Assembly: GCA_000182565.2 (NCBI GenBank)
Contig: KQ257458.1
Reading direction: 5' to 3' (one strand)
From: Spizellomyces punctatus DAOM BR117
Lineage: Eukaryota
Length of the DNA: 64,000 nucleotides
The notes beneath the pieces are model-generated. The model saw only the letters and a list, made by a program, of their open reading frames with translations. It was not told where the DNA came from and searched no databases. Shown here piece by piece: positions 22,838-41,984 of this stretch. Position numbers and translations under genes: made by a program. Every line of letters begins with the position of its first letter. The first letter of the stretch is position 1.

Positions 22838-24672
22838 ATGAGGGTGGGTGTTGAGCACCGCTGACCTCCAATTACCTCCTTAGATAGCTAACGCTCGTGC
22901 AGACAGCCAAAGGGAAAAGAGGACAATATAGCGCTGTAAGCAATCCGCGAAAAGTCAAGCTATCAAAGCCAAAACAGACATTCTCTGATGAGGGCTCGGC
23001 AAGCCAAATAGCGAAGGATGTATACCCACAAGAACCTACCCAGGTCCGTGGTCGTCAACCAGTAGACCTTGCTTCCGTAGACGGAGGCTTGTTACGAGAA
23101 AAATTGGGAAATTCAGCGACCACAGTCACGACATATAGTCCAGCTTCAATGCAGTTTTTGGCTGAGATATTCCCGGAGACCTTAAAAGAGAACCTTGAGG
23201 AGGCACTACTCATTTGCGAGGGCAACGTTGAAAAGGCAGTGGATTCCTTGTTGTCCGATGCGAATGACTTATTAGATGACGTGTGTTCCACCTGTTCCAG
23301 CTCCGAGCTTTCATCAAATGGAGAAATTTCGAGATTTGATGATGCTGCGTCCTCAGGTTCTCTTTCTTCGTCTACGAGCAAGGGAACGGCTTCATCGTCT
23401 GAGAGCCACTGTCTTGGACGCAAAGATAATACCAATGCGAATGGGCCAGAACTTGCGACTCTGTCTGCCATGTTTCCGGACCATGATCAAAGAACTATCT
23501 TATCAGCTCTGAATACCCATCAGTTTGATATGGATCGAGCGGCAGACACGTTGCTGCGGTTGACACTTGATGAAATTCCAGATAATAGAGTGTGCAAAGA
23601 GGATGAGGTACTTGCTGCGTTGATGGAGATTTTTCCCGAACAACCTTTAGATATTCTGCGTATCACTCTCCGACGCTGTGGCGGACTTGACGCTACTGTA
23701 CAGGAATTGACTAAAGATATCAAGACCGCGTGGGGGAGGAAGTGTGATGGGCGTTGTAGTGCCATGGGACATCCTTGTGTTTACCATCGATCTGAGAAAC
23801 CCATTGACATGGAGATGACAGCAGATAGAAGGCTCCGAAGAGCAGACTCTGCTTCCATGTCATCTCGCTCAGGTCCCATCTTCACCTTGAGCGCACGAGG
23901 CTCATCGTTGCCAGTTTCGTCTCGGATCCAAAATGTGGCGAATGATGTACGTTGGTTGCACGTCTATCTTGCATTATAGGTCTATGGTTGACTCTCTCAA
24001 TGACTTTGTGTGTAGGTGGAACAAACTGGTGGTACCAGTTCCGCACATGCAAATCCAAGTGAGATCAATTTTCTGGACCCTGGAGAGTGTCGGCAAGTTG
24101 CTCAGAGCTTTCGTGAGAAGCGCGATGAAGCGTTCCGCAGAGCAGCGAAAGCTTTCAGGAAGGGAGACCTTACTGGCAAGGGTTCCGCTGGATACTTCAG
24201 TCAAGAGGTGCGTTGGGGCTTGTCGATGAGCTTAATTGGATAGGTTGGAAATGACTCATTGCATCATAGGGTCGGGACTTGACAGAGCAAATGATGAAGT
24301 GGAACAGCCGTGCAGCGCAGGCGACCATCCAACGCAATAAGTACGAACTGTATCTATCAGATGATTTCTCTACTTTCGCAATTGCTTATAGTATACACAA
24401 GAGCGCGCTTCCAGGGCGATCCATTTGTCATAGATCTACACGGCTTGACCGTCAATGAGGCAGTGAAGTATGTGGACGAAGCAGTTAATGAGTGGTATTC
24501 AGGAAACGGTGCACACGCGAAACCTCAGAAACCGCTGCAAATTATAACTGGCTCTGGACAACATTCGTCGCATGGGATTCGAAAGCTGTATCCCGTGATA
24601 TATAAACGCTTATCCGCAAAAGGGTGGACCGTCCGTCCGGGCGGAAGCGGTTGGTTTTTTGTTAAGCCGTAA
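22838..24672 (+). CDS. CUE-domain (x3) plus Smr endonuclease domain protein (Cue2/N4BP2-like)
   Basis: CUE motifs FLAEIFP..AVDSLL, LSAMFP..AADTLL and LMEIFP; DUF1771-like RDEAFRRAAKAFRKG; Smr motifs IDLHGLTVNEA..IITGSGQHS. Confidence 0.9.
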
Positions 24673-24829
24673 TAGCACGTCCTATAGGGACGCTTTTTTA
24701 TAGAAACGAATGACCAAATGTATAGAGGTTTGAATGGAGGAGGTGGTTGGTTCTTTATTAAGCCGTAGGAGTAAGTCTTCGGGGACGCTTTTTATGGAAA
24801 CGTGTGACCACATGTATATAGGTTTGAAT
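24640..24829 (+). repeat. Imperfect tandem duplication (~95 bp x2) of the Smr gene's last codons and 3' UTR
   Basis: Copy 1 at 24640-24735 and copy 2 at 24736-24829. Shared GGTTGGTT(T/C)TTT(G/A)TTAAGCCGTA, GGGACGCTTTTT and AGGTTTGAAT. Confidence 0.9.
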
Positions 24830-35658: not shown

Positions 35659-37533
35659 TCATAGGGTGAGCGCTTTTTGAGCCATTGCTATCGCGCCGTC
35701 CTTTGGATCGAGCATTAGACATTGAGTGACATCGGCGGCGGAAAGCGTTGATGTCTACTCACTTTGGTCTGATTTCCACCAATGAAACCACTTGCATGAA
35801 TGAAAACACATCCTGGGATCCCAGTTAAGTCGCTTAATGCTTGATCGCGAATACCCTATTTTTTGAGGATGCTCAGGATGCGTACAGACGGAGCCGGAAG
35901 TGTTCAAGTTTACACCTACCCTCCAAGGTTCCGGCAACGGCTTTCGGCTAATCGTTCAATTGATAAAATCATTAAAATTCGATTTTCCAGCACCATTGTA
36001 GGGAAAATTTAATGTACCTTTGGAATGAGTCGGGAGTGACGGGCACTGGTCGTGGGAATAAGAATTGTCAGTCTGCTTAAAGAGGCCTTCCAACCCGCCG
36101 TTCCGGTATTTACCTGCTTGAACACGCCATTGTTTTGCAGTTTCGTCCTCATACAAGACGTAAATTGGTCTCTTCTCATCGGGTATCTTCTTCTCCTCCT
36201 CAAGAATATGTCTACGTGACATGGTTGAGCCCATTTGGAATTATTTCGCTGTACCGAATCCCCTACACTTACAAGTGCTCCTTCCAAGGACAAAAGTTAT
36301 TCAGGATAAGAATATGCCCAGTTGAGCTGACTTCGACCCTCTCCTCCAGCGCCTGCTCAACCAGTTCTCGTCCCGGAAGCCACGACAGGCCTATATAGCG
36401 AACCTACAGTCCAGCTGTCAAAAACATGTCTGTCACGACAATCCGCCTGCTTGAAACACGCACCCTTTCCACAAATTCCGCCCCAACCATAGCAACTGGG
36501 TGGACGGTATACGTCATCTATCGAATAAAAGCATTTTGAAGTGACTGACAACTGACCAGCTTTTAAGAACCGCTCCTGGTAGTCTACGTTTTTCTCATTC
36601 CACCAAGGATTCAGCTTCGCCACTCGTGAGCTCGCGTTCGTCGAATCGCGATACTTTGGTTTCACATCAGACGGATATTGGGACACGCCATTGTCAATCC
36701 CATCGAACTGTGATTAAACATTTTAGCTTCTACCGTAACTGTTATTCTAAGAGGTGATACATACTGCAAGCACGAAATCGTCGTACACTTTCTGGTAAAC
36801 CACCGCCAGTTTGGGATCAGTGACCTCCCAACCTAAGACTTGGGCCACCACTTGTCTTCCAAAGTGCTTGTAGACAAGCCCGGCAGATGAAAGTCTTGTG
36901 TGCAAACAGTCATTATCAACTCCCGCTCAGCCATGATAGCAGACCAGTAGCGTACTTAATGTCGTATTGGGGACCAAACGTCTCGGTGAAACCACGTTGA
37001 TGGTGGTCAAATCTGAATTGATCAGGAATATATTCTCCTCCGACATCAACCACGATATCCGCTTTTGCAATGACAGCGGGATCACGGGAACGAACGATTT
37101 CTAAAGCATCCCTGATCACTACCTGAAGATGATAAGATGATAAAGTTCTACCTAGCACACCTGCATCCGCATATTCAGGTATCAGCCTGCAATGGTATCA
37201 TTAGTACCGTAATGGGCATGACGGCAGGTGATCTATCGGTGACAGGTTCGCCTCTCCTTATAGCCTACCTGAGCATGGAAATTGCCAAAGACTCATCGGC
37301 ATGAAAGCTGGTAGAACAACCGATACATGTGAGCATTGTGTGAGAGAAGAGGGGGCTTCCAGTACCAACCTGCCACTATGGGTTGTTATAACTTTCTGTG
37401 CACCAGATCGACATACAGAAAAAGGCCTGGTCAGCTGTCGGGCAGGTAGGCGGAGGCGACGCAACAGAAATGCCCGATTCGAAAGAATTCTAACAGGACC
37501 GAGGGTCCACCCCATTACCTTGACTGTAGACAT
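35659..37533 (-). CDS. MYG1: MYG1 3'-5' exonuclease / metal-dependent hydrolase (UPF0160)
   Basis: THSG..FHADE, VVDVGGEY..FDHHQRGF, LSSAGLVYKHFG, LNPWWNE, WRVQA and CVFIHASGFIGGN. Confidence 0.93.
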
Positions 37534-38101
37534 GCTGTACTCTTGCAATCTTCCAACGCAATGGTCCCAAAAGTCTTTCAAGTTTGGGACTTTTGGACGA
37601 TCTGAATCCATTTGCCCAAATTTGGGCATCAGTCCATAACAGGCAATGTGAATATACCAGCCACCTGCATTGAGTGATTCTGAACTTTTGCAAATCCAAG
37701 TTTCTTGACGCTCAGGCTAGCGATCATCGGTATCTTCTCAGCCTCACCGACTTTATTATAGATAGCAGTTTATGGGTCCTTGACTTGAGGTGTGTTTTAA
37801 TTACGACGTGGGATGTGAGTGATCGTTCAAAGGTCATAGAGCCGCAAATGCACACGATTTATATTTTGGCTATTTGAAAAACGACCATTTATCAAGAGTA
37901 CCTTTAGCCCGTCTCATCCTTTGGATGTACATGGCGAGAAATCAGCTTTCACTTGACCTTACACTCTGAGCTCCTTCTCTGTATGGCTGTTGGCAGCAAC
38001 TTGTCGCAACCCTAACAGTATCGTGGGTTAGTGCAAAAATCTCGACTCCAGAATGGCTGCTCTACCCAGCAGGCATAGCACAAAGCAAACACAGCAACGC
38101 A

Positions 38102-38668
38102 GGAGAGTAGTCGAGTCCTTAGCGACAAAGTTACATGAGCCGTGAGGCTGAATCATCGCAATGTCGGGCTGGTCTCCCGTACTCTCCTAACATCAGTACG
38201 GGGGCATTTCACCCCGCCAGCGGTATGCGACGTCCCCACAGCAACTGAAAACAGCCGATGCGGTGCAGGGCATTCCGACCTCCGGTATGCGACTTCCCCA
38301 CAGCGACTGAAAACCAGTCGGTGCCATGAGGGGCATTCCAGCGCGTGTGGTATGCAACGTCCACGTAGTAGTAGGGCGCTGCGATGCGGGCTGCTGGAGA
38401 GTAGTCGAGTCCTTAGCGACAAAGTTACATGAGCCGTGAGGCTGAATCATGGCAATGCCGGGCTGGTCTCCCGTACTCTCCAAACATCTGTACGGGGGCA
38501 TTCCACCCCGCCAGCGGTATGCGACGTCCCCACAGCGACTGAAAACAGCCGGTGCCATGAGGGGCATTCCGCCTTCGGTATGCGACGTCCCCACAGCGAC
38601 TGAAAACCAGTCGGTGCCGTGAGGGGCATTCCAGTGCGTGTGGTATGCAACGTCCACGTAGTAGTAGG
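38102..38668. repeat. Nested tandem repeat: two ~274-bp units (period 294), each a multi-stem head followed by three hairpin modules
   Basis: Units start at 38102 and 38396. The module core GGTATGC recurs at 38222, 38284, 38349, 38516, 38577 and 38642. Within-unit spacings of 62, 65, 61 and 65 are not multiples of 3. Confidence 0.95.
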
Positions 38669-39007
38669 AGCCCATGCTCACCCGCTGGGTATATCGGAAA
38701 CTGACCTTTTGCAGAGCGGCTGGCATCATTCCACGTAGGTTTCGGCAACAAGGAGGAGAGAGCTGGCTGGGACCGGAAGTGCACGCGGTGGGTAAAACCG
38801 CGTTTGGCGTTGATAACGCTTAGCATGTGGCTTTATGGATTACGGCATCATGATGCACGGTCGCGTCGATAATAACGCCGTACGAAGTATGCTCAAAGGA
38901 TGAGCAACTTTACTTGAGCAAATTACCTTGTTTCCACCACGTACCCTGCGCACGTTGAAGCCGGTAGACGACAACAAGAAAGCAGTACTAATGGTCTACA
39001 GCTCCAA

Positions 39008-41984
39008 ATGACGGCTCATCCAATGCCCTCCGCGATGACCCTGCTCCACCCCATGCTGCAAAGCAGTTCGCCTAAAGGGATCCGGCAAGACTCAGGTTGG
39101 TAGGGCCGTCAAAAGTGCCTGCTAGTGTTGGGCCAAAACTGGTTGCGCTATTCAAAAGCAGATTGTCAGTGAAGGCATAGTGTCAGTGCGTTAATGGTGG
39201 AATGGTTTGGGTCGAAGCCTTTTGGGTTATCATCCGACGCTTCTGCTTCCGTGGTGCTTAATGTCGACGGAAAGAGCTGTAGATAATGGCTAATTAAGTC
39301 TTCCGCCGCATTTTTCAGCCACTCTTTCTGGATCTCCTCCAGTCATTCCTGAAAGCGCTTCTCCCTTGTCTATATCCGATTCCCTATCCAATGTCTGCTT
39401 GCTCCCATTTGCAGATCAGCTTTCAGACCTGCCGTCGGATCTGCAAAATATTCTATGGAATCTTCCCTTCTTTCCTCGTGATCGAGACGCAAGCGAAATT
39501 GCTGGGATTGATGAGTTTCTCAAGGATATCAGCCAAGTGATGCACATCCGTCACTTCTCACCCGGCGACGTCATGATTCAGGAAGGTGAAAAGGCGCGAG
39601 CAATGTTTTTTGTGATAAAAGGTATGTTTTTCAGTATGTCCTGAACCTTTAGCTTTTGTGCTTTGCCTTGACCAATTATACGGTTCGCCAGGTATCGTTA
39701 AGGTGATAAGCGAAGACGGAGAAATAAATTTCGCGGAACTCAGACCAGGAAGCTACTGTATGTTCTCAAAGGTGTTCCTCCATCTCCTGGCAATCAACGC
39801 AGATGGTATGACACTAAACATATTCTTGTAGTTGGCGAAATTGGGGTTCTTTTTAACATCAACCGGACGGCCACCGTCACTGCGAAAACAAAATGCACAC
39901 TAGCTGTTCTGACCTCTGACGACCTCGATCATAAACTGGTGCGATACCCGCAAATTAATACCATTTTGCGGACTCAAGCAAATGAGCGATATGAGCAACT
40001 CAAACGCGAAATGGAAAAGGCGGGTCGAAGGAGGCGCTCGGAATTGTGTGATAAATCTCACGAGATGCGAAAGGTATGAAGTGGTGATGCTGTAACTTCT
40101 AGGGAAGGATTCCTAACCCAGGAGTTTATAGGAGTCGTCACATGGATCCTTACGCGAGCTTTCAGCGTCTCGAGTAGCCTCGCGGCGAACATCGGAGGAG
40201 ACAAAACTATATAATCAATTACCAGCAGAGGCTATCCCTACACCAGGTCGGACCTCATCTGACGATTTTACAACATCAGCACTAGCGATTTCTGTGGATG
40301 CAGGATCTCCGCCACCCAGTAGTGGCGTGCCGCTTTCTCCCACCTCCGACAGCGCTGGTCTATCTTCCCCTGCAGCAAATTTTGCTGCGCGCCATGGTGG
40401 ACGACGACGTGCATCTGTCGCAGTGTGGTCGGATGACAGGTTGATGCAATTCGCCCAGAGCGCCAGTGAAAAGTACGAACAAGGAAAAGAAAAGCATACG
40501 GTAGCCGTTCCATCCAATCTACATCGTGCTGCGTCGGAGCTAGCCCTAAGAAAGACCTTCACGACCCCGCCAGTTACTGAAATTCGCGAATTCGGTGTGT
40601 TTGGCCGTGATCTCATGGCAAGGATTCTCAGCCATCTCGACTTTCGTCAACGAATGCGCGTTCGACTTTGCAGCATGCACATTCTCAGACTTCTCCTGGA
40701 CCCGCGAATGATGCTTACCACGGTCGTAGACCTTAGCCCGTGGCATAAGCGCATTGATGACAAGGTTATATCGGACATTGTCTGCTTCTGCGGTCAGACG
40801 GTGCGGAGTTTGAGCTTGCGCAACTGCTGGGGAGTGACGGACAAAGGGTTGGCTGCGATAGCTCATTACGCAGCAGATGGCCTGGAAACATTGTGTTTAG
40901 CCAGTGTGTGGGATATTACCGACGGGGGGATCGCGAGTATGGCAAGAATGTGCTCGCATCTTAAGGATCTTGATCTCAGCAACTGCCGGAAATTGAGTGA
41001 TGCAGGGATATCGAGCATGCTGGATGCCTGCAGCAATATAGACACTCTCACGCTTTCTTATTGTAAGAACCTTACCGATGCAATTTTGGGACATTCTCGG
41101 TGGAAAACAGTAAGAAGGGTGAATATGCAACGATGGTAAGCTGGCAGCGGACAACATCCGCGGACGACTTGGTTCTTACGTTTCTTGTGCACGCAAACAA
41201 TAGCACCGGCATATTTGATGCGGGATTCAGTAGGTGGGCCTCGCAGGCTGCTGAACCCGACCCGGAGCAAGTCTCGACCCAAACTGTCCCCGAGGCTGAT
41301 GAGTTTACAGCGACTCTTGGAGCGGGTCCTGTGACACAGATTGCAGAAGAGATTGAGGAGGAAAGTTATGCTGAAGATGACTTTATGGACATTGATAAGG
41401 GTGATCCATTCTATATAGCTGGCCCGCCAAGAACGCTGTCGTCATCATTTCATCAAGTTACGGCCTCTTCCTTCGCACTGCAAGAGCTCATTCTGAGCGA
41501 CTGCTCGTTCCTAACTGATGCCACTGTAGCTGCCATCGCTGCCAGCTGCCACAATCTTCAAATACTTTCCCTTTCATTTTGCTGTGCTGTGACTGAGGAT
41601 TTTGCTGAGCATCTTTCTGCTGGTTGCCCGCATCTCCGGGCACTGGACATGTCCTTCTGTGGAACGGCGGTCACAGACACAAGCCTCGGTGTCCTAGCAC
41701 GAGGTCTCCGATGTTTGGAGCGATTAAGCATTCGCGGCTGCGTACAGGTGACAGAGAAGGGAATTACCTATCTAGCAAGGTACGCACGTCGTCTACGGAT
41801 GCTGAACGTTAGCCAGTGCAAAAATGTAAATGAGCAGCTGGTGGAAAAGACTGGGAGAGGGTGGAGGTTATTGACCTGCCAAGGGTTGGTGGAGGTGGAT
41901 GAGGTGAATTTCCGGCTGAATGGAGGAAAAGTGATTGGGAAGGGTATAGGGAGAAAAGAAAGAGCCAGAGCCTCGACCGCATGA
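39008..41984 (+). CDS. Cyclic nucleotide-binding domain + F-box + leucine-rich repeat protein
   Basis: cNMP domain FSPGDVMIQEGEKARAMFFV..FGEIGVLFNINRTATV; F-box-like ARILSHLDFRQRMRVRLCS; many LRR-CC repeats (LSLRNCWGVTD, LDLSNCRKLSD, LDMSFCGTAVTD). Confidence 0.88.

Follow-up and report, generated by a model that had tools for sequence, protein, structure and literature searches.

What is the array of repeated hairpin modules that lies next to the MYG1 gene of Spizellomyces punctatus DAOM BR117: an undescribed structured RNA, a regulatory stretch of DNA, a mobile element, or a local duplication within a transcript? We studied it in a window of 64,000 nucleotides (nt) from contig KQ257458.1 (NCBI GenBank assembly GCA_000182565.2), to which all positions refer. 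A sequence-only reading had described the array at 38102–38668, had placed it in a 1.5-kb gap between MYG1 and a cNMP-binding gene, and had suggested a minus-strand RNA under selection for its secondary structure, with a retrozyme, a short interspersed nuclear element (SINE) or a hairpin-ended mobile unit among the candidates. In our preferred reading, which we put at a probability of roughly 45%, the array is a locus-specific, fast-evolving tandem duplication in the leader intron of MYG1 that is transcribed and then discarded by splicing.

Public reads were placed on positions 37000–40000 of the window, namely RNA run X20, the chromatin immunoprecipitation (ChIP) DNA library X21, and the contig sets X7 and X10. 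The latter two come from Logan assemblies, whose contig depths reflect RNA level poorly, and were taken as complementary DNA (cDNA)-like because their contigs are spliced. Spliced RNA showed that the supposed gap is a transcribed minus-strand intron. This spliceosomal intron (38012..38705, minus strand, 694 nt) holds the whole array and has a GTCAGT 5' splice site, a CACTAAC motif whose branch A lies 17 nt before the 3' end, and a TTAG end. Its splice joint (38010>38705, CT..AC, cut +1) was carried by 6 of the 99 placed reads of X20, with 5 different starts, and by one X7 contig. The array accounts for 588 of the 694 nt, and the intron without it would be ~106 nt long; the seven other introns in the same 3 kb measure 60, 82, 62, 123, 223, 70 and 74 nt. 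Downstream minus-strand exons matched the Pfam family MYG1_exonuc (PF03690, E 3e-19 and 6e-11), and one of them is 100% identical to SPPG_05382 of S. punctatus DAOM BR117. The array is in the first intron of the MYG1 isoform that begins at an upstream start. Raw RNA depth in X20 was 0–0.35 over 38212–38615, compared with 7–14 on the leader exons.

The array (38099–38686) consists of two head-to-tail units of 294 base pairs (bp) each, identified by direct-repeat search at a spacing of 294/293 bp. Tandem unit 1 (38099..38392, minus strand) comprises an 88-nt hairpin, three modules and a 17-nt divergent tail, as delimited by repeat search and pairwise alignment, and tandem unit 2 (38393..38686, minus strand) is 92–96% identical to it across the core. 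The first 184 nt of the units (38099–38282 and 38393–38576) share 92% identity and the next 97 nt (38279–38375 and 38572–38668) share 96%. In the pairwise alignment the homologous cores stop at 38375 and 38668, and the final 17–18 nt of the units are barely alignable. A small inversion was rejected as the source of these tails, their reverse-complement alignment scoring 11 against a shuffle mean of 11.4. On the plus strand, each unit opens with an 88-nt imperfect inverted repeat that is followed by three modules of ~62 nt. The module signature GGTATGCRACKTCCMC occurs six times, in the array only (38222, 38284, 38349, 38516, 38577 and 38642), at a chance expectation of 0.11 and with six matches reached in 0 of 100 shuffles. 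Module spacings are 62, 65, 61 and 65 nt, and the only period reported for the array by Tandem Repeats Finder (TRF) is 61 nt (38508–38632). In both units the CGACTG/CAGTCG hairpin is absent from the third module. The two units of period 294 with three modules each, the truncated third copy, the five variable loop sequences (all quoted exactly) and the spacings of 61–65 nt that break any reading frame had all been described correctly from the letters; the 88-nt hairpin at the opening of each unit had not been singled out. Stop-free frames across the array (208, 135 and 97 amino acids) matched no Pfam family at E <= 0.01.

Three kinds of hairpin element recur in the units, all given here for the minus strand. 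The 88-nt imperfect hairpins, found as inverted repeats, lie at 38101..38188 in unit 1, with an A-T pair at the foot, and at 38395..38482 in unit 2, where the foot pair is T-A; their arms are the only inverted repeats found in the array region. Constant blocks of 56–57 nt (GGTATGC...GGCATTCC) lie at 38222..38277 (unit 1 copy 1, 56 nt, the most degenerate), 38284..38340 (unit 1 copy 2, 57 nt), 38516..38571 (unit 2 copy 1, 56 nt) and 38577..38633 (unit 2 copy 2, 57 nt). Hairpin A, composed of GCATT(T/C)C, a variable segment of 6–11 nt and GGTATGC, was tabulated pair by pair for both strands in six copies, the first at 38204..38228 and the other five at 38270–38290, 38333–38355, 38498–38522, 38564–38583 and 38626–38648. 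The idea that the 5' 88-nt domain arose from a module copied in inverted orientation was rejected: a profile built from the four full modules found no minus-strand copy there.

Copy number was judged indirectly, from the raw reads of ChIP library X21. In total, 6900 reads of 38 nt were placed at a likeness of at least 90%, 6611 of them at least 99% alike, and no position in the 3-kb stretch had another letter in at least 10% of these reads. Depth per orientation was 55–83 over the array, 42–46 in the immediate flanks and 62–81 in the MYG1 body. With neither extra depth nor variant letters, the array is therefore not part of a dispersed family; by read depth it is locus-specific and not repeated elsewhere at an identity of 90% or above. 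The array is covered ~1.6 times as deeply as the immediate flanks, and since X21 is a ChIP library, one extra copy or a collapsed third unit is possible. In X7, contig 8 (38363–38571) runs from the end of a unit into sequence with unit-1 letters at all 6 of the listed discriminating sites; it may reflect an assembly path through a 55-nt stretch common to both units, or a third unit. In mismatch, repeat and profile searches of the 64-kb window, neither the module nor the 88-nt domain turned up again. Besides the array, TRF found just one tandem repeat in the window, at 24649–24829 (period 94, 1.9 copies, 81% matches).

The 88-nt hairpin of unit 1 folded at -32.0 kcal/mol on the minus strand (z-score -3.38, 0 of 200 shuffles as stable; plus strand z -3.06), and for the unit 2 hairpin the z-scores were -3.00 (minus strand; 1 of 200 shuffles as stable) and -2.58 (plus strand). 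The constant block was predicted to form one irregular hairpin of ~20 bp on the minus strand. This fold was the same in all four complete blocks on the minus strand only, while the plus-strand fold differed from copy to copy; the z-scores of the four blocks were -1.24, -2.07, -1.53 and -2.50 on the minus strand and +0.75, -2.78, -0.37 and -1.63 on the plus strand. The block at 38222..38277 folded at -19.7 kcal/mol on the minus strand with the consensus outer stem lost. On these predicted folds, what the sequence-only reading called variable loops can be read in a second phase, not considered there, as linkers between constant hairpins. At larger scale the excess was smaller, with z -1.0 to -1.74 for single units, -1.76 on the minus strand (4 of 100 shuffles as stable) and -1.42 on the plus strand (8 of 100) for the whole array, and approximately -2.1 for the entire intron, for which the minus strand alone was folded (1 of 60 shuffles reached this stability). 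As controls, the other tandem repeat and two flanking segments were folded at equal length on both strands, and these six folds gave z -0.39 to +1.10; the 588-nt segment around the 24649–24829 repeat accounted for +1.10 (minus) and -0.39 (plus) and showed no excess folding. Judged by these predictions, the array is moderately more structured than its surroundings, with a mild preference for the transcribed strand. The plus-strand consensus fold of the two units gave -89.8 against -82.6 +/- 5.4 kcal/mol (z approximately -1.3); in it, the 88-nt domain is predicted to pair over long range with the M1–M2 spacer, and there are two compensated pairs, a number that 70 of 300 shuffles reach. A "zipper" function, in which the fold would bring the 5' splice site near the branch point, found no support: the native path in the minimum free energy (MFE) structure was 27, against 15.4 +/- 7.6 in 60 array shuffles, 57 of which were as short or shorter.

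The sequence-only reading had proposed a minus-strand RNA whose structure is under selection. The strand holds, since the GT..AG intron is transcribed from the minus strand, whereas the data, with six modules in two units, are too few to demonstrate selection on structure. Between the units there is one compensatory pair on the minus strand and there are two on the plus strand, and column shuffles gave at least one in 196 of 300 and at least two in 70 of 300 cases. The foot pair of the 88-nt hairpin (columns 206/293), A-U in one unit and U-A in the other, is the clean local compensatory exchange. Mapped on each MFE structure, the 16 between-unit substitutions broke 4 pairs on the minus strand against ~7.0 expected (P 0.076 and 0.082), and the same test on the plus strand gave P 0.38 and 0.008 depending on the reference unit. 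Among module types one position covaries, the pair closing hairpin A. Its variation had been noticed before, and it reads G.U, G-C and A-U on the minus strand and A.C, G-C and A-U on the plus strand in module types 1, 2 and 3, respectively.

Divergence was compared at two timescales. Blocks of different module types in unit 2 differ in 3 of ~49 constant columns (~94% alike), and by our own arithmetic a uniform neutral rate would predict ~0.5 changes per linker. Between units, a hand count gave ~3 changes in ~27 linker positions compared with 14 substitutions in ~250 other core positions, and the linkers are not obviously hypermutable on this younger timescale. Over 38409–38587, an X10 contig of 181 nt carries 5 substitutions and 2 indels relative to unit 2 of the window, while three X10 exon contigs (203, 179 and 190 nt, 572 nt in total) show 0 differences, so that the array, judged from one contig, appears to evolve faster than the exons. 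Three of the seven differences are unit-1 states, namely an A-U pair restored in the 88-nt hairpin, an A.C mismatch in hairpin A (38503), and one whose pairing partner is unseen.

Under our preferred reading, the array would have arisen in two rounds. In the first, a module of ~62 nt would have been multiplied to about three copies beside the 88-nt hairpin, and in a later one the 294-bp block would have been doubled to the two copies that are 92–96% identical today. RNA from the array would be made only within the pre-mRNA and be lost with the intron. The stems would have been kept by recent common ancestry, by short-tract conversion between the 56-nt blocks, and by sense-strand C>U and A>G changes, which would turn G-C or A-U pairs into G.U pairs on the transcribed strand. 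Such a sense-strand mutation bias occurs in transcribed DNA. No separate RNA product would be needed for what is seen, and the effect of the array would mainly be a longer intron, with ~590 bp inserted between the upstream start and the main MYG1 promoter.

Several observations weigh against this reading, and most of them bear at the same time on the alternative that the intron gives rise to a structured RNA, either a stable fragment or ~56- and ~88-nt hairpins that serve as Dicer-type or protein-binding substrates, in which the hairpins would be selected and the linkers free. The z-scores of the 88-nt hairpins on the minus strand (-3.0 to -3.4) lie well outside the control range of -0.39 to +1.10. 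The two-unit consensus fold of the minus strand, at -100.25 kcal/mol against -84.1 +/- 5.4 in 300 column shuffles (z approximately -3.0; best shuffle -100.35), points in the same direction. Divergence is uneven: the 6–11-nt segments between the blocks are unalignable and differ in length, against ~94% likeness of the blocks themselves. A simple, recent and neutral duplication of modules together with their linkers would not produce such a pattern, and block-limited conversion or constraint is therefore required; the blocks are either homogenised by short-tract conversion or constrained. Variants in the stems are wobbles on the minus strand and mismatches on the plus strand in 6–7 cases versus 1 opposite case by hand count, a difference that is not significant. 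The asymmetry from A.C on the plus strand to G.U on the minus strand is as originally described, the one opposite G.U event being at position 6 of unit 1 module 1, and transcription-biased C>U and A>G mutation would explain it without selection. By our own mapping, the four private changes of X10 among the seven differences leave the stems intact: one is at a bulge base, two are insertions, in a loop and in a linker, and the fourth converts a G.U pair to A-U. At the RNA level, contigs of both cDNA-like runs cover the array. The X7 contig at 38363–38571 (209 nt) has a depth of 4.4 compared with 6.25 in the neighbouring exon contig, and since it crosses the unit junction, at least part of the RNA is long; the X10 contig at 38409–38587 (181 nt) has a depth of 11.2 compared with 8–13 for exon contigs, though all X10 contigs measure 179–203 nt and each may reflect very few molecules. 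The non-repeat 87 nt of the intron has almost no depth. To these points a structured RNA would add the recurrence of one fold in all four constant blocks on the transcribed strand, the closing pair of hairpin A, which can form on the minus strand in all three module types, and the compensatory exchange in the foot pair of the 88-nt hairpin. Yet covariation does not exceed shuffles, the substitution test stays at P of about 0.08, and on the minus strand hairpin A is disrupted by the A.C of unit 1 module 1, a state that X10 shows too, at 38503. The consensus outer stem is missing from the first block of unit 1, X20 raw reads have next to no depth across most of the array, Logan contig depth is a poor guide to abundance, and the array occupies a single locus. 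It has no canonical C box on either strand, CUGA occurs once on the minus strand, and nothing in Rfam matched at E <= 10. On balance we hold a structured RNA from the intron to be a possible but tentative explanation. Its bolder form, a polycistronic array of undescribed structured RNAs released from the MYG1 intron as stable hairpins, small-RNA precursors, or decoys or substrates feeding back on the exonuclease, seems unlikely to us.

Conserved blocks with free linkers would fit binding sites in DNA as well as hairpins in RNA. The array would then be a cis-regulatory element, with binding sites or positioned nucleosomes between the MYG1 promoter (~37700–37900) and a shared divergent promoter (~38750–38900). 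It lies 100–700 bp from two transcript starts and carries ACGT-core motifs (GACGTC and CCACGT); of the six modules, three contain GACGTC and five ACGTCC. The drop in ChIP depth to 12–20 at 37606–37908, as against 55–83 over the array, fits a nucleosome-free promoter beside chromatin that is occupied and marked. Conservation, however, extends over whole 56-nt blocks and not over short motifs, the strand-asymmetric G.U pattern would be meaningless at the DNA level, and interpretation of the ChIP profile needs the target and an input control; we therefore regard a regulatory DNA array as quite unlikely. A mobile element or its relic, be it a miniature inverted-repeat transposable element (MITE), a SINE, a retrozyme, an introner-like element or a ghost Spu-1 element with its omegaRNA, would account for the length outlier in an otherwise short intron and for the richness in hairpins. 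S. punctatus carries 134 ghost Spu-1 Fanzor elements of ~550 nt with structured omegaRNAs (PMC10432273), and the array resembles them in its organism, in its non-coding length and in having a constant structured scaffold beside a variable stretch. These elements are defined by conserved inverted repeats of 30 nt, a CA motif and a 75-nt omegaRNA scaffold at ~134 loci (PMC10432273), whereas the array is single-copy by read depth and has no such inverted repeats. The locus tags SPPG_05381 to SPPG_05383 and 10- and 16-mers of the array were absent from 8 of 9 supplement files of that paper, the 10-mers having been included because supplement files in GenBank format split the sequence every 10 letters, and by eye the array does not resemble the omegaRNA scaffolds printed for the ghost elements. 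We rejected a ghost Spu-1 origin on these grounds, and likewise the MITE, SINE, retrozyme and introner-like candidates, given the flank-like, single-copy DNA read depth, which came without variant letters, the lack of terminal inverted repeats and the lack of a ribozyme or other Rfam match. No flanking direct repeat of the kind left by target-site duplication was seen at the array borders, and one scan of prokaryotic genomes and two scans of viral sequence returned 0 matches. A metagenome scan with TCCCCACAGCRACTGAAAAC found one locus (L001), in which the match covers only those 20 bases within unrelated GC-rich sequence, a chance match. The retrozyme, SINE and hairpin-ended mobile unit put forward from the letters thus fall away, and a mobile origin of any kind is highly improbable.

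Among known systems, the preferred reading of a duplicated stretch within the MYG1 leader intron comes closest to an intronic minisatellite or variable number tandem repeat, with head-to-tail units, nested sub-repeats, a single locus, non-coding sequence removed with the intron, and an array that differs in X10 while the exons are identical (in one contig). The array departs from such a repeat in having only two units, in the likeness of its blocks (~94%) beside unalignable linkers, and in folding more strongly than the other tandem repeat of the window. Known stable or structured excised introns are usually whole short introns and not a repeat array within a long intron. Stable excised intron RNAs, namely stable intronic sequence RNAs (sisRNAs) and structured excised linear introns as outlined in an excerpt of PMC7518892, nevertheless share with the array its residence in an intron, its strong self-pairing and the presence of cDNA-like contigs over the array and not over the plain part of the intron. 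Mirtrons, clustered primary microRNAs and fungal hairpin small-RNA loci are similar in their tandem 56–88-nt hairpins on the sense strand of an intron with irregular stems of ~20–30 bp; unlike in mirtrons, the hairpins here do not abut the splice sites, and Drosha and Pasha are absent from fungi according to an excerpt of PMC6206976. Intron-hosted small nucleolar RNA (snoRNA) clusters likewise combine several small structured modules in one intron of a gene that acts in RNA processing, here a host named MYG1_exonuc by Pfam. They differ from the array, in which the variable segments (6–11 nt) are too short for guides and no Rfam snoRNA family was matched. For box C/D, neither strand of the intron contains RTGATGA (RUGAUGA), and the one CTGA on the minus strand is in unit 1 only. 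For box H/ACA, the minus strand has 4 ACA and 7 ANANNA motifs, none of which by inspection directly follows a hairpin in both units. The earlier statement that the array is not recognisable as a tRNA, 5S, SRP, snRNA, hammerhead or HDV ribozyme stands, and no known RNA family matched: Rfam gave 0 matches at E <= 10 within 38005–38710 on both strands and none in the array in the 3-kb scan, and ARAGORN found 0 tRNA genes in the window. Among the papers listed for Spizellomyces in one open-access library, none describes the array.

The transcript around the array comprises two leader exons on the minus strand. Upstream leader exon 1 (38706..38817) has a 5' end that is not fixed, with an X20 depth of 7.15 in 38717–38817 and 0 in the next bin. 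Some X20 reads carry unmatched letters past 38732, 38746 and 38753 (3, 6 and 3 reads, respectively), loose ends that may be adaptor or template-switch sequence at 5' ends or else strand-switch artefacts. Leader exon 2 (37519..38011) runs into the MYG1 coding sequence (CDS), as derived from X7 contigs 6 and 7, the splice joints, and in-silico splicing and translation. The MYG1 start codon is probably the ATG at 37533, with a predicted protein start of MSTVK followed by KVITTHSGSFHADE... The leader exon part at 37630–38011 contains upstream ATGs with short reading frames at 37932, 37917, 37888, 37837, 37727 and 37670, and two more, at 37629 and 37611, share the frame of the MYG1 CDS and could extend the protein at its N terminus. 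X7 contig depth is 21.6 over 37519–37869 compared with 6.25 over 37843–38010. Because of this step and the dip in ChIP depth, we infer two MYG1 starts, with the main promoter at ~37700–37900 and a weaker upstream start at ~38750–38817.

On the other side of the upstream start lies the divergent plus-strand gene, which has Pfam matches to cNMP_binding and LRR_6. Its first exon (38907..39095, plus strand) was delimited with X7 contig 9 and ends at the joint 39091>39315 (GT..AG, cut +4), i.e. 39095>39319. With the frame worked out by hand, the cNMP-binding exon can be read from an in-frame ATG at 39008, and the CDS would then start ~300 nt further left than previously assumed. The MYG1 upstream start and the cNMP/LRR gene share a promoter region of roughly 100–150 bp.

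If the array is an intronic duplication as we prefer, its consequence is an annotation correction, in which the 1.5-kb gap becomes a spliced leader, a 694-nt intron and a compact divergent promoter, and the array would be one more intron lengthened by local duplication in a fungus with short introns. S. punctatus has genetic tools. Public small-RNA data for this species exist under a BioProject that is named in an excerpt of PMC10432273. Should the intron instead yield a structured RNA, it would be the first intron-hosted array of hairpin RNAs described in a chytrid, and it would lie within the gene of an RNA exonuclease.

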